From the NCBI GenBank assembly GCA_964354495.1, contig CAYHAA010000001.1, positions 248,075 through 280,074 on the forward strand: a stretch of 32,000 bases of DNA, read 5' to 3'. Positions within the stretch are counted from its first letter, which is position 1; every line of letters begins with the position of its first letter. This stretch comes from an uncultured archaeon (GTDB lineage: Archaea > Asgardarchaeota > Thorarchaeia > Thorarchaeales > Thorarchaeaceae). Positions 11,085-31,667 of the stretch are shown here, piece by piece. Made by a program: the position numbers and the translations under genes. The notes under the pieces are model-generated. The model saw nothing but the letters and a program-made list of their open reading frames with translations, did no database searches and was not told the origin of the DNA.

Positions 11085-11741
11085 TCAGTCTGTTTCTGCA
11101 ATCAATCTGCGTGCCAAATCTACTGCGCTCATTGCATCCTTCCCAAACGCATCTGCGCCAGTGTAGTCCACAATGCTCTGATCAATGTCTCCCCCGCCAA
11201 TCATGACCTTCACTTTTTTCCTCATGCCTGCCTGTTTGAGCGCAGCTATGGTCTTCTTCATGACGTCATGTGTCGTCGTAATCAGACCACTCAGGGCGAG
11301 AACCTTAGCATCTGTTTCTCTCAATTTCTCAATGAACTTCTCGGGTGGGACGTCTTCGCCAAGGTCATGGACTTCAAAACCATTGGACTTCAAAAAGGCG
11401 ACAACGAGGTTCTTTCCGATATAATGTATATCTCCTTGTACAGTGCCGATCACAATCTTTCCGCTATAGCTCGACTTCTGAGATGAGAGAAGGGCCGGCT
11501 CGAGCTTCTTCATTGCTCGTTTGAATACATCCGCTGACATGACGAGCTCTACGAGAAAATACTCATTCTTGGAGAATCTTTCACCAACTATGTCCATTCC
11601 TTCCTTGAGTTGGCCAAGAATCGTGTGGGGGTCAATACGGCCTGAAATGTACTTTTCAACAAGACGAAGTACCTTTTTGTCATCGATGTCTGCCATAGCT
11701 GTTACAAGTTCCTTCACTTCATTTGATGCCTCCAGATGCAA
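11085..11741 (-). CDS. Methyltransferase corrinoid (B12-binding) protein, MtaC/MtbC/MtgC-like
   Basis: N-terminal cap domain (LKEGMDIVGERF...YFLVELVMSA), DxHxxG cobalamin motif GTVQGDIHYIGKNLV, then DLGEDVP, LSGL and MIGGG. TTG start with an AGGTG SD. Confidence 0.92.
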   Translation of the reverse strand: MHLEASNEVKELVTAMADIDDKKVLRLVEKYISGRIDPHTILGQLKEGMDIVGERFSKNEYFLVELVMSADVFKRAMKKLEPALLSSQKSSYSGKIVIGTVQGDIHYIGKNLVVAFLKSNGFEVHDLGEDVPPEKFIEKLRETDAKVLALSGLITTTHDVMKKTIAALKQAGMRKKVKVMIGGGDIDQSIVDYTGADAFGKDAMSAVDLARRLIAETD

Positions 11742-11770
11742 TTTAGGACACCTGTGAGTAAGAACAGCGT

Positions 11771-11785
11771 ATCATATATCTTTCC
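11771..11785 (-). promoter_or_regulatory. Putative archaeal BRE/TATA promoter of the corrinoid gene
   Basis: The minus strand reads GGAAAG-ATATATGAT, a purine-rich BRE-like block followed by a TATA-like box, about 33 bp upstream of the start at 11741. Confidence 0.5.
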
Positions 11786-11873
11786 TCATACTAACGCAGT
11801 TGAATCAAGAGACATGCCCTCAGAATTCTCGTGGGAAGCCAGGTAGAAATGCCTTGCTTCTCTGGCTATTCTC

Positions 11874-12008
11874 TCAGCTCTGACCCTGCTTGCCAAAGAC
11901 AGACGTAATCCTCTTGCACCTTCTCATGACGCATCCAGAATCATGCACGATACATCTGCCGCGGCTCGTAAGCCCGATGGTTCCGAATACTACGACGCGT
12001 TTTGGCAT
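11874..12008 (-). CDS. Possible small protein (44 aa, three Cys), absent from the ORF track
   Basis: ATG 8 bp after the mtrH stop. Translates as MPKRVVVFGTIGLTSRGRCIVHDSGCVMRRCKRITSVFGKQGQS*. No homolog recognised. Confidence 0.3.
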   Translation of the reverse strand: MPKRVVVFGTIGLTSRGRCIVHDSGCVMRRCKRITSVFGKQGQS

Positions 12009-12016
12009 ATGATTAC

Positions 12017-12922
12017 CTATCCAATCCTGAATCTTGGATGCTGCCTGTCCGGTCTAATGCCTTCCTCTAGAAAAACGCCTGACAGTGCAGTGTCGATCAT
12101 CGCGATCGATGGAAATACAATTGATGCGTGCTTGATTGGGCCATAGAGTATAAAGTCAGCTCCAAGCACGACAGGCATGAGACTGGAACCAACAAGGGCT
12201 GCATCTCTGGCTTCCTTACCGAACTTTGGTACAAGTCCGACCCATGTATTCACTGCATTATGAGCTCCGCACCCTACAGGATATCCCAACTTGCCTTTTG
12301 CATGTTGCAGAGCCTTGCTAGCAATACCAAGAGTCAGCATGTCTACGACACCCGTGTCAATCATTATGTTCTGAATTCCGATAGTCAGAGACCTATTTAG
12401 CAGGTCTTCTGCAATCCTAAGCCTCTTCTTCGAAGAAGCCATGGACTCGCTGTCAAAGGCCAGAACTACTGCGTTCTTCAGTCCCAGTCCGTGCATTTCC
12501 TCGAGGGTGCTAGGATCAGTTTCCGGAACTATTGAGTTGAGTACAACCCGTTCCATTATTCCAAGCTCAGAAGCTCTCTCCAATCCAGCCAGATTCACTT
12601 CATTAGAACCTGATCCGTCGATAAGCAGAGGCATCTCTGTGATATTAGAGAGAAATGAAATGTACTCTCTCATGGCATCTGGCGTGGCTCCGACGACATC
12701 CAGCATACTGGGGAGACCGGTGGCATCAGATATCTTCGAGAGCTGTTCGAGGGCCTGTTCTACCTCGGCTCTCTGTACTGTCCCCTTCTTGGGATCCTGC
12801 ACAAGCTTATCCTTGACGTAAAAAATGGAACCAATAAGGACTGTTGGAGTCAGCCCGGGCTGTCCACCAATTTTGATACCACCTATTTCCAATGTCTTCT
12901 GAGATGTCGAGTAGTGATACAC
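12017..12922 (-). CDS. mtrH: MtrH/MtgA-family pterin (H4MPT/H4F) methyltransferase
   Basis: N-terminus QKTLEIGGIKIGGQPG..PTVLIGSIFY is typical of MtrH; also PLLIDGS, GCGAHNAV and GADFILYGPI. GTG 12922 preceded by AGGAGA gives the usual MtrH N-terminus; the track start at 12997 is probably too long. Confidence 0.88.
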   Translation of the reverse strand: MYHYSTSQKTLEIGGIKIGGQPGLTPTVLIGSIFYVKDKLVQDPKKGTVQRAEVEQALEQLSKISDATGLPSMLDVVGATPDAMREYISFLSNITEMPLLIDGSGSNEVNLAGLERASELGIMERVVLNSIVPETDPSTLEEMHGLGLKNAVVLAFDSESMASSKKRLRIAEDLLNRSLTIGIQNIMIDTGVVDMLTLGIASKALQHAKGKLGYPVGCGAHNAVNTWVGLVPKFGKEARDAALVGSSLMPVVLGADFILYGPIKHASIVFPSIAMIDTALSGVFLEEGIRPDRQHPRFRIG

Positions 12923-13219
12923 ATACTTGGTCTCCTTTGCTCTGCTCAGACATTCATTTGTGCCTTTAAGCACACAGGTTCTGCTTGAATCTCGCACTAT
13001 AAGGAAGAGCTCAACATTACTGGATTTCCTTTGAGGACTGAATGTGTTGGTCCATGGAGATGAGTGCCTCTTGGTTCAACTGAAGATGTGGCCTATGGTG
13101 TTACGATGGAACTTGCTCAGAGAATAGGAAGTGAATTATCCCAGATAGGTTAACAAGCATACAGTATGATTGGACGCACTCGAGGACACAGAAACGCATT
13201 GTGTGGGGTCTGATTCATC

Positions 13220-15120: not shown

Positions 15121-15816
15121 ATGCGAATCGCTTCTGTCATTGATATCAGCCTTGTCGATGTTCCCAAGATCCCCGTGACTGTGATTTTCACTGCTGGGTG
15201 CAACATGGACTGCCCCTACTGCCAGAATGCTGAGATAATACCGCTCAAGTCAGGAGCTGCGATGAAGATTCCCGAGATTGTGGAGCGAGTGCGAGGAAGT
15301 ATGAGCGATGGTTGCTGTATCACTGGCGGAGAGCCAACCATCCATAGAGACCTGCCAGACCTGCTGAAGGCATTACGAGACGCTGGAACGGGCCATATCA
15401 ATCTGAACACACAGGGTACCGTGCCTAATGTATTGAAGAAGTGTTTGCCCTATCTCGATTCCATATGGTTCGATGTGAAGACAGTTCCAGAAAGATATGC
15501 AGAAGTCACCCGTGCAAGGAGTGACCCGTGGCCACGTGTGCTGAAAAGCATAAAGCTTCTTCTTGATTCAAGCGTCGCGTTTTGGCCTAGGACAACTTAT
15601 GTTGGTCGCTGGATGCACCCCGAAGAGATAGAGAGGATCGCCTATCTTCTAGTTGATTTGGGATTTGAGGGAGCATACCTGGTGCAGAACTACGTCCGCT
15701 CGTCAGGGACTCGAGAATCAGAAACTGTAGACTTCGAGGGACCTTCAATTCACGAAATAGAACAAATCAGGGAGAGACTTCCCCCTACAATCCGTCTAAA
15801 TCTAGAATGGCGCTAG
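15121..15816 (+). CDS. Radical SAM protein, glycyl-radical activating enzyme family (anaerobic RNR activase/PflA-like)
   Basis: VIFTAGCNMDCPYCQN (CxxxCxxC), ITGGEPTIH, LNTQGT, WFDVKT and RTT motifs. Confidence 0.85.
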   Translation: MRIASVIDISLVDVPKIPVTVIFTAGCNMDCPYCQNAEIIPLKSGAAMKIPEIVERVRGSMSDGCCITGGEPTIHRDLPDLLKALRDAGTGHINLNTQGTVPNVLKKCLPYLDSIWFDVKTVPERYAEVTRARSDPWPRVLKSIKLLLDSSVAFWPRTTYVGRWMHPEEIERIAYLLVDLGFEGAYLVQNYVRSSGTRESETVDFEGPSIHEIEQIRERLPPTIRLNLEWR

Positions 15817-24783: not shown

Positions 24784-27700
24784 ATGAGTGACGACATAGT
24801 AAGTAAATCGGTGCCTATTCTCAGGGATAGCCTCGGTCTGACAGATGCAGAGGCAAAAGCAATCGTGCCAATCTACCTGGGAGGCAACATGACTGCCGGA
24901 GGAGTTGCTCTTCTTACAGGAGAGAAACTCGCTACGGTTCAGAAAACCCTTGGTCGCCTTACGAACAAAGGTCTGATCAAGCAGATTGATGGGATAGTTC
25001 CTGTCTACAGAGCCTTGTCGCCTGTTATGGCTCTTTCAGGGCCTCTTGGAGATTCTCTCAACGATGTGAGGGCTCTCACAAGTGACTCAGAACAGGTATT
25101 CTCTTCTAGAGTGAAGGATACTGAGTCCGTGGCTGAAGATATCATAGGCTCCCAGACCAAGTCTCTGGACGAAATGAGGGCGGCTCTCACATCATACGAG
25201 AACGAAGTCCTAGAGCTCGTAACAAAGCAGGTCGAGAATGTAGTATCGACCGCAACGAGCACGATGACTGGATTCTCAGATGAGATTGAGCAGGCGATGA
25301 ATGGTCTCGACGCCATCCTCGAAGAGAGCCTAGGAACGAAAATGCGCGAGCTACAGACCGAGATCGATAAGGCTCAACTAGCCATGGACAAGGATCTGAA
25401 GGTACAGGTTCGCGAATTCGATGGATGGCTCAAGACTGAACGAAAGGGAGCCTTGGGGTCCATCAAGGAGTTCGAAACAAAGTCTGCTTCTATTGTTGAA
25501 TCCGCTAAGGAGGCTGTGACAGCAGCACTCTCAACATCTTCAGACCAGGTCCAGAATCTAGCACGAGAGATTTCTGGAAAACTGGCCTCTATGGCATCTA
25601 CCGCATCTGATGACGGCATCGCAGTGATCAATAATGTTTCAGCAGAGATTTCGCAATTGCTCAACCTTCTCGATAGTGAACTATCACAAGCATATCTCGC
25701 GGGGCAGGAATCATTAAAGGAAGTAGTCACTCAGGCACGCAGTGTTTCCAAGGAATACGGTGAGTTTGCACAGAATCGTATCGGTGCTGCAGTAGAGATT
25801 GCAGATTCTGTAGGCGGAATTGTCGACGATTGGAAGAACGAAGTCTCGGGATTCATGGAGGTTGCATCCCAATCTGTGACATCCCAGCTGAATCAGGTTG
25901 CTTCCACAGATGCATCCTATCTTGAAGTGATGAAGAACTCCCTTACATCACACGTCGAGAGAGTCAACGAATTGCTAGCTGAAGAATACGGTGGGCTCTC
26001 TGCCCTTGTTACCTCTCTTGGGAGCGAGACAGAGACAACACTCTCAGACACTCGTTCAATGGTACTTGAGCTTCTTCAGGCGCAGAATGATGAGGAAGAG
26101 AAAGACTGTGATATCGCCGCAGACAAGCTAAACGCGGAACTTGATAACTGGGTCAGCGATTCAGTCACCTCCATAGAAAAGAAGATGAAAGACACGTCCA
26201 AGGATGTTTCAACCATCCTAGATACAGAAACCTCTGAACTGAACTCCATCTCCAAGACGATGAATAGTCGACTGAAGTCCGCTTTCAATTCCGTCATAAA
26301 GAGCACAGCCACAAAGAATGAAACGCTTCTTACATCGGTGAAGAAGACAAGTCATGACTTCGAAGCCGATATAGAAAGCAGACTCGAGGAGTTGATTGGT
26401 AGCTACACGACAGCAACGGAAAAGCAGGTCCGCGAGTCAAAAGAACTGTATGAGGGTTTGCGTGAACGTTTAGATGGCCGAATGTCGGAGTCCGTTTCTG
26501 CAATCAATTCTCAAGCTGACAGGATTCAGAAAGATATCACTAACACAATAGCTGAACAGACCAGTAGAATCGATCAACATGCACTGGGTATCAAAGAGGA
26601 ATTTCATAATCGGTTAGAAGAGATCACGAACCAATTTCTGTCGCTGACGCACGGCCTTGAGGCAACATTCAATGGTCTCTTGTCATCTCAGACCATTGAG
26701 GCACGTGATCTCATTGCATCAGCTCATTCAGAGTTCCGATTCATTATGAAGAACGAGGTCACCACGCTCAAGGACGACTCACTGAAGATACAGCAGGAAT
26801 ACTCCACTGAGCTTGCCCTGAAGATTGATGATGTTGCATCCTCTGTTGCCGCTGTAAAGAAAGCCCTCAATGAACTCTCAGTTCAAAAACGCTTTGAGAT
26901 ATCTGAAAGTATGGCGAAGACACTTGCAGACCTCGAGTCGTCCATCAGGAGCACTGAGGAGAGTCTACGCGACATCGAGTCCGGAACTATTACCCAGTTC
27001 ATCGAGAATATGGATCAGGTCTCTGAAGAGTTCAAAGTCACTGTGGCTGGTGCACGTGATAGTGTAGCTGAACGTTTGGATAGCGTGAAGGATGTGGCCG
27101 CAGCGTCACTGGCAAAGAGTTCAGCAGCAGCGAAGTTGGTTGCTGATGGATTCATAGCTGAACAGAAGGATATCAGACAACGACACCTTGCTGAGGCGAG
27201 CAAGAAGATGAATAGACTTGCCACCAAGAGAGGGAAGGACTCCTCAGCATCTATCGAAGCGTTCCAGAAGCTACTCTCGGAACGTCAGACGAGTAGTGTG
27301 AAAGATAGAAGCACTGCGAAGGATGAGGTGTATGCAGCAGTAGAAACGCGTAGGTCTGAGGTTGCCAATGCATTTGACGCAGCAGCAGTATGGGTCGATT
27401 CATCTGTGTCCAATGTTGCCACCTCACTTGATGCCTTTGGCACCAAATTGACGAATGAACTTACTCTAATGCAGAAAGGTCTCCAGAAAGCTGGAGCTGA
27501 GGCGGCATCGGCAATCCAGGAGCGTGGCGAGGCTGATATCGACAGCTTCCAGGAAATCGCCTCTGCACTCATAGAAAACACTGAGTCGATTGTGAAGGCA
27601 CGAATAAACGAATTTGGAGATAGTTGTTCAGATGCTCTTGCAAAGAGCAATGACTCCTTTACGTCCATGCCAACCCGATTGAGTGAGGACATCAATGGAA

Positions 27701-28677
27701 TGGAAGATGAAACAGCAAAGAGGACCACCCAAGACTACTCGTCCATCTCAGGTGACCTTTCCAGTTATTTCACCGAATGCATCCGTAGTGCTGAGTCCGC
27801 ATCTGAGGGCTTCAAAAACCTTGTTGACAATACCTCGAACACTCTGACGAAACACCGTGATGAGGTGTTTGAGGAGGTGCAAAAAAGCACCGACTTGGCA
27901 AACCAACATGCGTCTCGCAAGTTTGAAGCAATCGGTTTGGATCTCAAGACCCAGCTAAGTGGTGACTCATCACGTTTACTGGAGAAAGCACGACTGACAT
28001 TCACTGAAAAGAGCAAAGAAATCACTGACATAGTAACAACGACAACCAATACCATTAATGAGGAAACCTCCCCTCTGAGAGAGAATCGCAACAAGGCACT
28101 CTCTCTTTTTGGAGAGTCTAGCGAAAAAACACTCAGAAGATGGTCGACGGATCAGAAAAACCAGATCTCTTCATTGAAGGAGCGAATTCTTGAAGCAATC
28201 ATGCGTGTCACCGGGAAGACAGAGGAAACTATCAAGGTTCTCAATGCCATCAATGACATTGGCGATGAGATCATCAAGAGCCCATCAAAAAGGACCTGGT
28301 ATGTATCGGGCAAAGAAGAAGCCTGCGCACATGTAACAGATATGGCAGATAGAGCCGAAGACTCAGTCGTCATCTCTATCATCGATCCCTCCTGCCTGGA
28401 CTACAAGAAGCTGGCAAAGGTCAAACATGCCAAACGTCGTGTGCTTGTTGTTCCAGAGAGCGAAGAACCAGATCCGAATCTATCTTCCTTGGAAGGTTGG
28501 AGAATCTGGCAGACCCGAACCCCGATGTTCCTCTCCATAATCGACGATAGAGAGCTACTGATTGGAGGTGCGACCGCGACCGAGGATTTTGTTGCTCTGA
28601 TTTCAGAGGATGAGACCTATGTCCGACTCTACCATGACATACTTGGTCCTCGACTGGTGAGGGGCAGAGTGAGCTAA
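24784..28677 (+). CDS. TrmB-like protein: N-terminal wHTH and C-terminal effector-like domain separated by about 1050 aa of amphipathic helix
   Basis: N-terminus LGLTDAEAKA...MTAGGVA...LGRLTNKGLI...YRALSP matches the TrmB HTH. C-terminus WYVSGKEEACAHVTDMADRAEDSVVIS...FLSIIDDRELL matches the TrmB/PLD-like domain. The middle is S/A/E/D/T/L-rich helical sequence with almost no Pro. Confidence 0.75.
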   Translation: MSDDIVSKSVPILRDSLGLTDAEAKAIVPIYLGGNMTAGGVALLTGEKLATVQKTLGRLTNKGLIKQIDGIVPVYRALSPVMALSGPLGDSLNDVRALTSDSEQVFSSRVKDTESVAEDIIGSQTKSLDEMRAALTSYENEVLELVTKQVENVVSTATSTMTGFSDEIEQAMNGLDAILEESLGTKMRELQTEIDKAQLAMDKDLKVQVREFDGWLKTERKGALGSIKEFETKSASIVESAKEAVTAALSTSSDQVQNLAREISGKLASMASTASDDGIAVINNVSAEISQLLNLLDSELSQAYLAGQESLKEVVTQARSVSKEYGEFAQNRIGAAVEIADSVGGIVDDWKNEVSGFMEVASQSVTSQLNQVASTDASYLEVMKNSLTSHVERVNELLAEEYGGLSALVTSLGSETETTLSDTRSMVLELLQAQNDEEEKDCDIAADKLNAELDNWVSDSVTSIEKKMKDTSKDVSTILDTETSELNSISKTMNSRLKSAFNSVIKSTATKNETLLTSVKKTSHDFEADIESRLEELIGSYTTATEKQVRESKELYEGLRERLDGRMSESVSAINSQADRIQKDITNTIAEQTSRIDQHALGIKEEFHNRLEEITNQFLSLTHGLEATFNGLLSSQTIEARDLIASAHSEFRFIMKNEVTTLKDDSLKIQQEYSTELALKIDDVASSVAAVKKALNELSVQKRFEISESMAKTLADLESSIRSTEESLRDIESGTITQFIENMDQVSEEFKVTVAGARDSVAERLDSVKDVAAASLAKSSAAAKLVADGFIAEQKDIRQRHLAEASKKMNRLATKRGKDSSASIEAFQKLLSERQTSSVKDRSTAKDEVYAAVETRRSEVANAFDAAAVWVDSSVSNVATSLDAFGTKLTNELTLMQKGLQKAGAEAASAIQERGEADIDSFQEIASALIENTESIVKARINEFGDSCSDALAKSNDSFTSMPTRLSEDINGMEDETAKRTTQDYSSISGDLSSYFTECIRSAESASEGFKNLVDNTSNTLTKHRDEVFEEVQKSTDLANQHASRKFEAIGLDLKTQLSGDSSRLLEKARLTFTEKSKEITDIVTTTTNTINEETSPLRENRNKALSLFGESSEKTLRRWSTDQKNQISSLKERILEAIMRVTGKTEETIKVLNAINDIGDEIIKSPSKRTWYVSGKEEACAHVTDMADRAEDSVVISIIDPSCLDYKKLAKVKHAKRRVLVVPESEEPDPNLSSLEGWRIWQTRTPMFLSIIDDRELLIGGATATEDFVALISEDETYVRLYHDILGPRLVRGRVS

Positions 28678-29159
28678 AACTCGATGGCATAGATGATGGC
28701 GTCTTCATCGTCATAGTATCGTTCTGCTCTATCGACCGCCATCATCCCTGCCCTGCTATAGAGGTTTCTTGCGCTCTGGTTGCTTTCGCGCACTTCGAGT
28801 TCACACATCTTCATCCCCGCCTCGCACATGCCTCTGAGTGCATGATCTAGCAGAAGTTTGCCATTCCCTTTGCTACGTTCGTCCTCACGGACTGCCAGAT
28901 TGAGTATGTGCCCAGACTCATCGGAGAACGATTCTTCCCAGATGATATACCCGATGACCAATCCTTGACGGGTCATCACCTTCATATGAACGAGGACATC
29001 TTCGTCTACTTTGTACTTGCCCCTACAGAGTACTATTCTAAGGAATATTTCCTTGCTCCATGGCACAGGAAAACAACTGTTTTCGATATCGATGACTTGA
29101 TTGAGATCTTCAATCTGAGGTAGCCGCATCAGTCTGTCTTCCATCTCATAGCCCTTCAA
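28674..29159 (-). CDS. rimI: RimI-like GNAT N-acetyltransferase
   Basis: VIDIENSCFPVPW, GHILNLAV...RSKGNGKLLL, LEVRESNQSARNLY and RYYDDEDAIIY motifs. Confidence 0.88.
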   Translation of the reverse strand: MKGYEMEDRLMRLPQIEDLNQVIDIENSCFPVPWSKEIFLRIVLCRGKYKVDEDVLVHMKVMTRQGLVIGYIIWEESFSDESGHILNLAVREDERSKGNGKLLLDHALRGMCEAGMKMCELEVRESNQSARNLYSRAGMMAVDRAERYYDDEDAIIYAIEF

Positions 29160-29183: not shown

Positions 29184-29543
29184 CTAGTCATTTGGAGTGA
29201 CGTTGTTTCCACAGAACGGGCAGAATGACGAGCCTACTGGAATTGGTCTGGAGCAATAGGCGCACTTCAAGCCTACCGGAATAAAGCTATCTTGTGCACC
29301 TGTAGCATATTGAGACTCCGCCTTGGAAGCAGACATTGCTGTCGCACGCGCTGCAACGATGAAAAAGACAAACGCTAGAGCAATCAGAAGGCCAAAGCCA
29401 AGAGAGCTGGAATCTCCAATCAAGAAGAAGGGGAAGATGAAGAACACACCTCCTCCAGATAGATTGCTGGAAGAAAACAACAGGATGGCTCCAAGTGCAA
29501 TGAGAAGAAATCCCAAGGGAAGTAGACTCTGGTTCCAGTGCAT
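29184..29543 (-). CDS. Small membrane protein (DUF131-like N-terminus) with a C-terminal Zn ribbon
   Basis: Hydrophobic segments LGFLLIALGAILL, GGGVFFIFPFFLIG and LGFGLLIALAFVFFIV; CAYC...CPFCG. ATG 29543; the track starts at TTG 29549. Confidence 0.65.
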   Translation of the reverse strand: MHWNQSLLPLGFLLIALGAILLFSSSNLSGGGVFFIFPFFLIGDSSSLGFGLLIALAFVFFIVAARATAMSASKAESQYATGAQDSFIPVGLKCAYCSRPIPVGSSFCPFCGNNVTPND

Positions 29544-29565
29544 AGTCAATCTAGTCCTTTGACTG

Positions 29566-29916
29566 CTATTCCAGCATTCCTCGGCTCTTCATCTGTTCGA
29601 CGATCTGACTGTACTTCTGATTGTTGCCTATCATCTCATTGACTTGAGTTTCCATAGAGTGTGATCCTGGCAATAGAAGCACACTGATTTTGCTGCCCGG
29701 ATAGACTGATTCAAGACGATGTCGAATCAGGACGCCAATCAGTCCACCCATCGGACAATATGGGGCAGTTGGTCTGAACTGCACACGAATTGAGTCATTA
29801 TCAACGTCGATGTATTCCTGCTTCACTATCGACATTTGTGGGTCAGTAATCGATATGGGGTGCTCAGGATCCATGACGGGCTCCAATGCTTTGAACACTT
29901 CACCGACTGTTGCCAT
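29566..29916 (-). CDS. MIP18/DUF59 family Fe-S assembly protein, CIA2/FAM96-like
   Basis: VMDPEHPISI, FRPTAPYCPMGGLIG and KISVLLLPGSHSMETQVN motifs. ATG 29916 is preferred over TTG 29928. Confidence 0.8.
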   Translation of the reverse strand: MATVGEVFKALEPVMDPEHPISITDPQMSIVKQEYIDVDNDSIRVQFRPTAPYCPMGGLIGVLIRHRLESVYPGSKISVLLLPGSHSMETQVNEMIGNNQKYSQIVEQMKSRGMLE

Positions 29917-30107
29917 TATATTCCCCAAGACTAGGTCCCCTTTTCGACCACTTAATAATCTATGGCTCTAGCTACCTTTCACGAGCAGTTCTGGGTCGTC
30001 TACATTAATTGGCGCAAGGTATATCTGATATAGGAATCCCTTTATCGCGTCGGGTAATGCAGGAATAACGTTCAGAGAGAAACCACCAGTTGGGGGTACC
30101 AAAAACC

Positions 30108-30566
30108 ATGTCGCCCGCCGAAAAGAAAGCCAGCAACAAAATCAAGAAGTATCTGTTCAAGATAACAGTTGTCGGCCCAGATGACAAGCTTCTCATGGAT
30201 GTTCTTTCATTATTCGATGATCCCGTCGTATCAGTCGATGGGATTCGAATCGGATCAACTGAGGTGGATGTTGACACCTCTGAGATTCATGCTGTCTTCA
30301 TGTCGCCAAGGCACTCTGCTCTGGATGTCCTTCTCACCCTGACTTACAGAGGTGCAAGTGGTGCCATCATTGTGCTCAGAGAACCTGATTTGGAGCTGGA
30401 GCGACTATATCGAGATGAAGCTCGGACGAACCTAGGTGCAGATATATCCATGCGCACCGTGACTACAGGCTCCTCAATAGATGATTTCAAGCGAAATGAG
30501 ATTCATCATCTCTTCGAGGAAGTCGTTGTGGACATTTTGAAGCGCAAGACTCGAAAGGGGAAGTAG
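30108..30566 (+). CDS. Rab/Ras-like small GTPase-fold protein with degenerate nucleotide-binding motifs
   Basis: YLFKITVVG and TYRGASGAIIVL align with Rab YLFKxxxIG and YYRGAxGxxxVY, but GxxxxGK[ST], DxxG and NKxD are all absent. ATG 30108; the track starts at TTG 30090. Confidence 0.65.
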   Translation: MSPAEKKASNKIKKYLFKITVVGPDDKLLMDVLSLFDDPVVSVDGIRIGSTEVDVDTSEIHAVFMSPRHSALDVLLTLTYRGASGAIIVLREPDLELERLYRDEARTNLGADISMRTVTTGSSIDDFKRNEIHHLFEEVVVDILKRKTRKGK

Positions 30567-30602: not shown

Positions 30603-31667
30603 TTGGTGTCCACGGTGAGCTCGGATAATAAGAGAAGCGACGAATACTGGATGGGCGTGCGCGATGCACTCAGAATGATAGATATCTTCAACAAGTGGGC
30701 TGTGAGAAATCCCACTCGCGCGAAGAGTCTTGAAGATTTCATTAACGATGGGCTCATAGCAGCCGCCAAGCGATGCGAGTCTTGTCTCCGAGAGAAACTA
30801 GGGATTAGTTTCCTCAAAGAAGAGCCAGCTGAAGATGTTCCTCCTTTGGTTGAGTCACCAGCTCCCGAACCAGCGGCTCCTCCTGACTTTGAGTCTGCAC
30901 CAGACGAGATTTTCGACGCACACAGTGAATCTCCTCCAGATACCGATTTTGAGGTTGCTGTAGAGTCTGTGGACTATTCCTCCGAACAGGAGATTCACAT
31001 CGAATCAGAAGAGCCCACCATATCTATCGATACTGTCGAACGGTTAGAGGAAGAGCCCATGGACGATATTGTCATTGAGGGTCCACAACGTGATTTCTCG
31101 ACAGATTTCGTTCTTGTCGAGCCATCACCGCTTTCCGTTGATGCTGACGAAATAGAACCCGAGAGACCGGAAGTCGATGAATCATTACGTGAGTCTGACC
31201 TCGAAGAACTCGTTCATTCGGATGAATTAGATCTGGAACCAGAAGATGATGAGAGCCGGCCGACATTCACATGGGCTGATTATGAGGCTGCAATCACGCC
31301 TGCTCCTGAACCAGAGCCATTAGAGTCTGACTCTGTTGAATCCACGATTAGAGAAGGTGATTATGAAGTGCCTCCAATTGAGGACCGAAGTTCTCCAGAT
31401 GACGAAGCCTTTGGGGGACCTCCTGAGCCTTCTGAAGCACCCAAGGGATGGAGCACATATGATGAATCGGCCATCGCCAGTGAGGAGATTCCTGATGAAT
31501 CCTATGATACCAAGGATGAGGTTGAGATGGATGATTCAGAAGTGTCCAAACCCAGTGAAGCCGCAACACCAGTCACCGAACCTCCTTCTCCCCCGCCGCC
31601 GCCTGAAACCGAGGAGGATGAAGAGGAGCGACGACGAAGAGCACGAAGGCTGTTTTTCGGAACCTGA
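30603..31667 (+). CDS. Hypothetical protein: small N-terminal helical domain + long acidic/Pro-rich disordered region + basic-aromatic C-terminal motif
   Basis: About 70-aa ordered N-terminus (YWMGVRDAL...CESCLREKLG), about 270 aa of D/E/P/S-rich sequence, ending PPSPPPPPETEEDEEERRRRARRLFFGT. Start uncertain (TTG 30603, or a later GTG or ATG). Confidence 0.75.
   Translation: MVSTVSSDNKRSDEYWMGVRDALRMIDIFNKWAVRNPTRAKSLEDFINDGLIAAAKRCESCLREKLGISFLKEEPAEDVPPLVESPAPEPAAPPDFESAPDEIFDAHSESPPDTDFEVAVESVDYSSEQEIHIESEEPTISIDTVERLEEEPMDDIVIEGPQRDFSTDFVLVEPSPLSVDADEIEPERPEVDESLRESDLEELVHSDELDLEPEDDESRPTFTWADYEAAITPAPEPEPLESDSVESTIREGDYEVPPIEDRSSPDDEAFGGPPEPSEAPKGWSTYDESAIASEEIPDESYDTKDEVEMDDSEVSKPSEAATPVTEPPSPPPPPETEEDEEERRRRARRLFFGT

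Follow-up and report, generated by a model that had tools for sequence, protein, structure and literature searches.

The origin of the eukaryotic pathway for the cytosolic assembly of iron–sulfur (Fe-S) proteins (CIA) is a puzzle. Freibert et al. (2017) found a mostly bacterial stamp on the pathway and did not resolve where among prokaryotes Cia2 belongs (PMC5216125), and a phylogenomic survey by Tobiasson et al. (bioRxiv 2024.10.14.618318; PMC12338589) reports that CIA1 and CIA2B are clearly associated with Asgard archaea, but gives no description of the genes. Does an Asgard genome hold a recognizable counterpart of CIA2 and, if so, what might it do there? We approach this question through a 32,000-nucleotide stretch of DNA (the window; positions 248,075 to 280,074 of contig CAYHAA010000001.1, assembly GCA_964354495.1) from an uncultured archaeon of the Thorarchaeaceae (here Thor), in which a gene at 29566–29916 encodes a small DUF59 protein. 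An earlier note on the window had assigned this protein to the eukaryotic CIA2/FAM96 (CIAO2) type rather than to the SufT/PaaD type of DUF59 proteins, and had considered it relevant to the origin of the CIA pathway.

We find that the protein is a close archaeal relative of CIA2 and belongs to the CIA2/MIP18 branch of the DUF59 family, a placement on which sequence, fold and phylogeny agree. A link of CIA2B to Asgard archaea had been reported before; what is new here is the distribution of the gene, the motifs that are diagnostic of it, the pattern of a second C-terminal cysteine, the missing partners and the dispensability of the gene. The gene provides the puzzle of CIA origins with a concrete, well-modelled archaeal CIA2 counterpart, together with a set of motifs by which CIA2-type and SufT-type proteins can be told apart.

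The gene and its conserved motifs

The open reading frame (ORF) is intact on the minus strand, with an ATG at 29916 and a TAG stop at 29566–29568, and its product (P0001) is 116 aa long. A second possible start, a TTG at 29928, lies four codons upstream of this ATG. We annotate the coding sequence (29566–29916 including the stop) as a CIA2/MIP18-type DUF59 protein on the basis of the ORF list, the translation, the match to PF01883, the best relatives in the PDB (CIA2B and FAM96A) and an AlphaFold2 model. The three strings on which the earlier note had relied are present exactly in the translation: DPEHP at residues 16–20, an FRPT..C54..RHRL stretch at residues 47–68, and KISVLLLPGSHSMETQVN at residues 76–93.

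Conservation across 16 archaeal CIA2-type sequences and the phmmer alignment to the PDB entry of Drosophila galla-2 single out the same elements. In the DPEHP motif (29857–29871, minus strand), D16, P17 and P20 show no variation and E18 almost none. The segment F47–L68 (29713–29778, minus strand) carries PTAPYCPM, which stands opposite PTIPHCSM of galla-2, and leads into a helix at residues 56–71; P49, C54 (codon 29755–29757), P55, I60 and G61 are invariant. DPEHP and Cys54 align with the corresponding motifs of both galla-2 and FAM96A. The DUF59 cysteine homologous to Cys54 has been reported to be hyper-reactive (PMC4982691). The signature that distinguishes CIA2-type from SufT-type proteins, G84-S-H86-S-M-E89-T-Q-V-N93 (29638–29667, minus strand), aligns with PGTHASELAVN of galla-2, and its residues G84, H86, E89 and N93 are invariant; in the translation, the string PGSHSMETQVN ends at N93. 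The remainder of the protein (29569–29637, minus strand) belongs to a two-helix C-terminal extension, with helices at residues 89–97 and 99–111 as assigned by DSSP on the model; this part superposes on CIAO2B.

The two ends of the protein depart from the eukaryotic pattern. Alignments begin at about residue 3–6 of the query versus residue 35–100 or beyond in the eukaryotic matches, and the protein has no N-terminal extension of the eukaryotic type. Its C-terminus ends in ..GMLE, just short of the site at which the majority of CIA2 proteins from other archaea and from eukaryotes have a second conserved cysteine.

Sequence comparison separates the protein from SufT and PaaD

The generic DUF59 model PF01883 matches the protein with 31.2 bits against a cut-off of 23.5 (E 2.6e-7), which establishes the DUF59 core. 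The more specific prokaryotic models score far below their thresholds: of the NCBIfam SufT models, TIGR02945 gives 26.2 bits (cut-off 143.4) and TIGR03406 26.6 bits (cut-off 202.6), and the PaaD models TIGR02159 and NF041868 reach 14.4 and 19.8 bits against 108 and 180. No paa genes were found among the scanned ORFs of the window. A phmmer search of the PDB places Drosophila galla-2 (CIA2B) at the top (E 2.2e-15, 60.1 bits), followed by human FAM96A (E 7.5e-11, 45 bits), while the highest-ranking prokaryotic DUF59 protein, TM0487, obtains merely E 0.16 and 15.5 bits.

An exhaustive phmmer search of 1.84 billion cluster representatives gave 636 matches, and the best 150 of these are of the CIA2 type, with none of the SufT type among them. 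A Thor cluster ranks first, then a few short archaeal proteins, and then almost exclusively proteins of 150–250 aa with DPEHP, PT(I/V)PHC(S)M and G(T/S)HxxExxxNK. Those of these best matches that carry a name come from eukaryotes (Pellita, Heterostelium, Arcella, Hartaetosiga, Lupinus AE7-like and Zooxanthella). Among named close homologs at 60–91% identity, nearly all come from Thorarchaeota metagenome-assembled genomes (MAGs).

Motif counts draw the same line. DPEHP occurs in 118/120 Thor-like homologs and in 128/149 of the top exhaustive matches, but in 0/120 SufT-type proteins; GxHxxExxxN is found in 112/120 Thor-like homologs versus 0/120 of the SufT type. Conversely, LGL(I/V)Y is present in all 120 proteins of the SufT type and missing throughout the CIA2-type set, and PPW, which in SufT-type proteins occupies the region of the GxHxxExxxN signature, is seen in 115/120 of them versus 0/120 Thor-like homologs. 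The motifs that the earlier note had given for eukaryotic CIA2 match the galla-2 alignment and those of the exhaustive search; the SufT-type proteins carry LGL(I/V)Y, which it had given for SufT/PaaD, and also TxPGCP. The note had also raised the possibility that PGxH is common among bacterial homologs. In fact, a pattern scan that covered 185,579 prokaryotic species, each represented by a single genome, gave 76 loci, and all 76 are archaeal.

Two proteins met in the exhaustive search are recorded here as separate observations. P0131 (854 aa) is matched by the query in 8 separate stretches and is possibly a tandem DUF59-like array. P0138 (320 aa) has a C-terminal CIA2-type domain, and its cluster includes a member labelled Nanoarchaeota.

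The predicted fold is that of CIAO2B

The AlphaFold2 model has an alpha/beta DUF59 core and is of high quality, with a mean predicted local distance difference test (pLDDT) value of 94.6 and a predicted TM-score (pTM) of 0.88. Its best Foldseek matches are the CIAO2B chains of the CIA targeting complex (6tbn, 6tbl and 6tc0), with a query TM-score (TMq) of 0.84, a root-mean-square deviation of 1.3–1.5 Å over 109 columns and E 3e-9; FAM96A follows with E 2e-6 to 7e-6. Prokaryotic DUF59 structures match over the core only, mostly across 83 columns, with TMq 0.56–0.61 and E of about 2e-3, and the match to ApbC is weak (8zkc, E 0.46). The two C-terminal helices superpose on CIAO2B within the 109 columns and lie beyond the 83 columns aligned to most prokaryotic DUF59 structures.

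Phylogeny and the relation to eukaryotic CIA2

We built a DUF59/MIP18 tree with eukaryotic CIA2-type and SufT proteins, as the earlier note had proposed (93 rows and 129 columns, including 32 eukaryotic and 10 Thor rows; LG+C20+F+G4 with posterior mean site frequencies, PMSF). The query falls in the CIA2-type clade, apart from SufT, and not within the SufT/PaaD branches that the note had named as the other possible position. The SufT-type outgroup is separated at 100/99, the CIA2 type and a divergent intermediate group come together in one clade (96/84), and eukaryotes are monophyletic at 100/100.

The maximum-likelihood (ML) tree further unites eukaryotes with Thor, at an ultrafast bootstrap (UFBoot) value of 100 and an SH-like approximate likelihood ratio (SH-aLRT) value of 92. 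We do not rely on this grouping, for several reasons. In the approximately unbiased (AU) test, a tree with all archaeal CIA2-type proteins as one clade and eukaryotes outside is not rejected (ΔlnL 4.96, p 0.445), which leads us to set aside a firm sister relation of Thor and eukaryotes. Constraining Thor to be monophyletic gives a likelihood slightly above that of the free search (p 0.562), and a nesting of eukaryotes inside Thor is set aside on this ground. The eukaryotic rows were the best matches of the Thor query and are therefore a biased sample. In the independent PDB phmmer comparison with galla-2, the Thor protein scores 60.1 bits, and those of Hermod (72.6 bits) and Bathyarchaeia (70.1 bits) are no more distant from it.

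The second C-terminal cysteine also speaks against trusting the grouping. In a comparison that took in loci L101–L143, its site lies about 25 residues past GxHxxExxxN, in the context ..G(M/L)LxRC.., and the residue is present in 61/80 complete eukaryote-type matches, in 13/14 Bathyarchaeia, 4/4 Methanocellales and 8/8 Jord/Frey proteins, and in the Sif homologs. In Thor (0/31 and 0/112) and Hermod (0/12) it is missing, and those proteins stop or diverge just before its position. The tree and the AU tests do not single out one archaeal group as sister to eukaryotes.

The divergent group seen in the tree between the SufT and CIA2 types (loci L059–L065, families f26 and f27) merits a remark of its own. 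Its members have a CIA2-like C-terminal length and carry P(D/E)V-IGSxxWN in place of GxHxxE. The gene lies directly upstream of two small genes that by eye resemble those of ribosomal proteins L18e and L13 in f27 and also in a single genome of f26.

An archaeal subfamily with a scattered distribution

Among 400 genomes of the phylum searched with a profile, full-length CIA2-type genes turned up in six families: Thor (f1, 42/85 genomes), Hermod (f14, 13/19), Jord (f15, 5/5), Frey (f16, 6/6), f33 (2/2) and Sif (f31, at least one genome among those listed). Three families, f26, f27 and f32, hold the divergent intermediate DUF59 form without GxH, and f29 (Odin), f4 and some further families have the SufT type only, so that CIA2-type and SufT-type proteins occur in different Asgard families. 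The same search found no gene in f22 (0/135), f21 (0/14), f10 (0/12), f11 (0/22) or f13 (0/12), and in f8 a single SufT-type match and no CIA2 type among 31 genomes. Of these, f22 is Promethearchaeia (the Loki class), f21 lies within Promethearchaeaceae (Harpocratesius-like), f8 is Heimdallarchaeaceae, including Ca. Heimdallarchaeum aukensis, and f10 is labelled Heimdallarchaeota. The CIA2 type was accordingly not found in the sampled genomes of Lokiarchaeia or Heimdallarchaeaceae.

Beyond Asgard, the loci of the pattern scan include many from Bathyarchaeia, others from four Methanocellales MAGs, and Ca. Mnemosynella. Within DUF59, the CIA2 type therefore makes up an archaeal subfamily that extends past Asgard, and it was not found in the sampled members of the lineages usually placed nearest eukaryotes. 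Its occurrence outside Asgard, together with the failure to find it in the sampled Loki and Heimdallarchaeaceae genomes, means that it is not a simple Asgard-to-eukaryote marker, and we advise caution against using it as one. The relevance to CIA origins that the earlier note had seen stands insofar as the gene encodes a close archaeal relative of CIA2; the gene is not specific to Asgard, however, and the tree and the AU tests do not favour one archaeal sister group of the eukaryotic proteins.

The gene looks accessory within its genus

Within the genus, 18 of 27 genomes are without the CIA2-type gene. We inspected five of them (G354, G357, G347, G356 and G364; loci L145–L149), each 91–95% complete. 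The locus, in the order c5-c3-[gap]-c1-c4, is intact in each, with no room for the gene, and none of the five genomes has a PF01883 match anywhere. Since the gene is cleanly missing from its syntenic position in these genomes, it looks accessory and dispensable in sister genomes. The genomes without the gene form a more divergent subgroup (46–51% identity in a shared WD40 protein versus 60–92% for the others), a pattern that fits a single loss or gain.

Fe-S genes of the genome and the search for CIA partners

The source assembly (3.3 Mb in 51 contigs, 97.7% complete) has this one DUF59 gene only. It encodes SufB and SufC, seven full-length class-V aminotransferases of the cysteine-desulfurase-like kind, and two Mrp/NBP35-type ATPases that carry a C-terminal CPKC motif and are not fused to a DUF59 domain. 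A DUF59 protein acting in trans alongside these ATPases is plausible, since neither of the two genes carries a DUF59 domain of its own.

A genome search for CIA components, also proposed in the earlier note, succeeded in part: Mrp/NBP35-type ATPases and WD40 proteins are present, but no match to Nar1 or MMS19 and no CIAO1-specific protein among the three WD40 proteins searched was obtained. For Nar1, the Fe-hydrogenase-like model PF02906 has no match in the genome, and as a control it matched in 2/14 genomes. The models for MMS19_C and CIAPIN1 (Dre2) are likewise without a match, both being weak negatives because neither matched in any control genome.

The genome encodes four WD40 proteins. 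Three of them were searched against the PDB, and their top 60 matches are generic, WDR5-like and free of CIAO1; the fourth is a protein of 258 aa. Orthologs of a 293-aa WD40 protein occur in 10/10 tested genomes of the genus, and those of the 258-aa protein in 8/10, with or without a CIA2-type gene. The generic matches of the three proteins searched and, for the two whose orthologs were traced, a presence that does not track the CIA2-type gene led us to reject these WD40 proteins as CIA1 candidates. A complex prediction for the 293-aa protein with the CIA2-type protein scored 0.01, which counts neither way.

We also looked for proteins with C-terminal tails of the client type, [LIM][DES][FW]. 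They end 10 of 2843 ORFs, versus about 5.7 expected and 3–8 in offset controls, so that there is no clear enrichment. The GNAT protein encoded close to the CIA2-type gene (28674–29159) ends in IEF and was considered as a client; this tail is not conserved in Thor orthologs from genomes that have the CIA2-type gene, and is probably a coincidence. Through the galla-2 alignment, we place Q135 and R141 of human CIAO2B on M95 and K101 of the Thor protein. In the human protein, these two residues belong to the client-recruitment pocket formed with CIAO1 (PMC12910081).

In sum, what we observe is homology to one component of the CIA pathway. It is not evidence for an archaeal CIA complex, because no counterpart of CIA1, MMS19, Nar1 or Dre2 was found in the genome and because the residues of the client pocket are not conserved.

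Genomic neighbourhood

Downstream on the same strand, the CIA2-type gene is followed by a gene for a 121-aa protein (29184–29549) whose N-terminal region is hydrophobic and predicted to lie in the membrane and whose C-terminal part holds a CxxC..CxxC zinc ribbon, the latter assigned from weak zinc-ribbon Pfam matches, and then by the gene for the 161-aa GNAT acetyltransferase (28674–29159; PF00583, E 3e-12). On the plus strand, divergently transcribed, lie a Thor-specific 158-aa protein (30090–30566) and a highly acidic, proline- and glutamate-rich protein of 354 aa (30603–31667), neither with a Pfam match. The 158-aa protein has a small GTPase as its lead: its language-model look-alikes are Arf/Ras/Rab clusters, and by eye there is no canonical GxxxxGK P-loop near its N-terminus.

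This arrangement is conserved across Thor. The acidic-protein gene and the 158-aa gene stand side by side on the divergent flank, the 158-aa gene being always paired in this way with the CIA2-type gene in Thor, and on the other strand the CIA2-type gene, after a gap of 16–22 nt, is followed by the membrane zinc-ribbon gene and the GNAT gene. The zinc-ribbon gene adjoins the CIA2-type gene in most of 29 related Thor loci and, like the GNAT gene, is kept in genomes where the CIA2-type gene is missing. The neighbourhoods in Hermod, Jord/Frey and other lineages are unrelated to that of Thor. A cysteine-desulfurase-like gene abuts the homolog in f32 (L061) and lies two to three genes away from it in Hermod (L049/L050).

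Elsewhere in the window, we note three further loci. At 24784–28677 (plus strand), a 1297-aa protein with an N-terminal TrmB-type helix–turn–helix and, after it, some 1000 residues made up of helical repeats like those of apolipoproteins resembles a giant coiled-coil regulator of an unusual kind. At 11085–12997 (minus strand), an MtrH-family methyltransferase beside a B12-binding corrinoid protein makes up a methyltransferase module. A 231-aa radical-SAM protein is encoded at 15121–15816.

Proposed function and alternatives

We hold it probable, with good though not full confidence, that the protein is an archaeal member of the CIA2/MIP18 (CIAO2) DUF59 subfamily, a stand-alone protein of about 115 aa that most likely serves as an auxiliary, late-acting Fe-S maturation factor, a role suggested by its homology with CIA2 and by SufT genetics. 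From its place next to the DPEHP loop and the GxHxxE element, the exposed, invariant Cys54 would make transient contact with a [4Fe-4S] cluster or with a partner that carries one. The protein would thereby help pass clusters made by the cell's own SufBC, by its Mrp/NBP35-type carriers, or by both, to apo-proteins; SufBC and the Mrp carriers would be the donors, and a complex of the CIAO1/MMS19 type would not be involved. SufT has been described as an auxiliary factor, with a single hyper-reactive cysteine, that cells require only when Fe-S demand is high (PMC4982691), and the apparent accessory status of the CIA2-type gene within its genus parallels that conditional need.

Several points weigh against this proposal. 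The Fe-S role of the archaeal members is argued from homology. Neither of the genes conserved beside it in Thor, for the zinc-ribbon membrane protein and for the GNAT acetyltransferase, belongs to Fe-S biogenesis, and the CIA2-type gene adjoins neither sufBC nor mrp in its own genome. The eukaryotic mode of client recognition probably does not apply, given the replacement of the two pocket residues by M95 and K101, and with the second C-terminal cysteine missing in Thor and Hermod, the chemistry of these proteins may differ.

Other explanations have to be set beside an auxiliary Fe-S factor. The protein might be one half of a genuine archaeal complex resembling the CIA targeting complex, binding a CIA1-like WD40 protein and recruiting clients, in which case the late CIA module would predate eukaryotes. 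The four WD40 proteins of the genome, the Asgard association of CIA1 as well as CIA2B reported by Tobiasson et al. (PMC12338589), and the presence in the model of the C-terminal helices that contribute to the eukaryotic CIAO1–CIAO2B client pocket all suit this explanation. We nevertheless think it improbable: the three of four WD40 proteins compared with the PDB are generic, orthologs of the two that were traced occur irrespective of the CIA2-type gene, the pocket residues are replaced and client-type tails show no clear enrichment. The lack of matches to MMS19, Nar1 and Dre2 points the same way, with the limit noted above for the MMS19 and Dre2 models. It is also conceivable that the Thor protein was recruited, together with its operon neighbours, to a task unrelated to Fe-S. 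The short gap and the conserved order of the CIA2-type, zinc-ribbon and GNAT genes would agree with such a recruitment, as would the loss of the second cysteine in Thor; it becomes very improbable in view of neighbours that persist unchanged in genomes without the CIA2-type gene, of wholly different neighbourhoods in Hermod, Jord/Frey and other lineages, and of the retained invariant cysteine and acidic and histidine residues.

The grouping of the 10 Thor rows with the 32 eukaryotic rows in the ML tree, and the failure to find the subtype in the sampled Lokiarchaeia and Heimdallarchaeaceae, could be explained better by lateral exchange between Thor and the eukaryotic lineage, from eukaryotes to Thor or from Thor to stem eukaryotes, than by vertical descent. 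The evidence given above makes such an exchange quite improbable, since the AU tests permit an all-archaeal clade and a monophyletic Thor, the eukaryotic rows were picked by similarity to the Thor query, and Hermod and Bathyarchaeia score higher against galla-2. The Thor protein moreover has the archaeal CPM signature, lacks both the N-terminal extension and the C-terminal cysteine that is common to eukaryotes, Bathyarchaeia, Jord, Frey and Methanocellales, and sits in a synteny conserved across the Thor family. That the protein is an ordinary SufT/PaaD-type DUF59 with coincidental CIA2-like motifs has next to no probability. The generic DUF59 match and the weak SufT and PaaD matches are what it can draw on, but the latter amount to 14–27 bits against cut-offs of 108–203, LGL(I/V)Y and PPW are absent, and the PDB matches, the fold and the tree all separate the query from SufT; we regard this explanation as effectively ruled out.

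A bolder version of the CIA2 assignment, which we regard as unlikely, sees the archaeal CIA2-type proteins as direct ancestors of eukaryotic CIA2 and as dedicated late targeting factors that would hand [4Fe-4S] clusters from Mrp/NBP35-type carriers to defined clients through a yet-unrecognised partner. If this were true, the late CIA module would have arisen in archaea and passed to the eukaryotic stem, with subsequent loss in the sampled Loki and Heimdall lineages. For experimentalists, the auxiliary Fe-S factor that we favour offers a minimal CIA2, free of the N-terminal extension and, in Thor, of the second cysteine.

Comparison with known systems

Pairing of DUF59 with an NBP35-type ATPase is known from carriers of the Mrp/ApbC/HCF101 type; the Thor DUF59 is neither fused to mrp nor adjoining it. 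With PaaD, a subunit of phenylacetyl-CoA epoxidase, the protein shares the generic DUF59 core only. The likeness to SufT goes further, as both are small stand-alone DUF59 proteins with one invariant cysteine, probably auxiliary and non-essential Fe-S factors, in genomes that rely on SufBC. SufT, however, has LGL(I/V)Y, TxPGCP and a C-terminal DPPW, is without GxHxxExxxN and the extra helices, and forms a separate clade.

The signatures of the subfamily and its fold are shared with CIAO2A/FAM96A, a metazoan paralog with a reported role in iron homeostasis (cited in PMC4982691), which is a more distant match than CIAO2B. From CIAO2B, Cia2, AE7 and galla-2, the Thor protein differs in its length (116 aa versus about 150–250 aa) and in having CPM where the eukaryotic proteins have CSM. 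It further departs from CIAO2B in lacking the C-terminal cysteine and in the replacement of Q135 and R141 by M95 and K101, and no MMS19 or Nar1 partner, nor a CIAO1-specific one among the three of four WD40 proteins searched, was detected beside it. These eukaryotic proteins are nonetheless its best match in both sequence and fold, at about 30% identity, and share with it the DUF59 core, the two-helix C-terminal extension and the motifs DPEHP, PTxPxC and PGxHxxExxxN.

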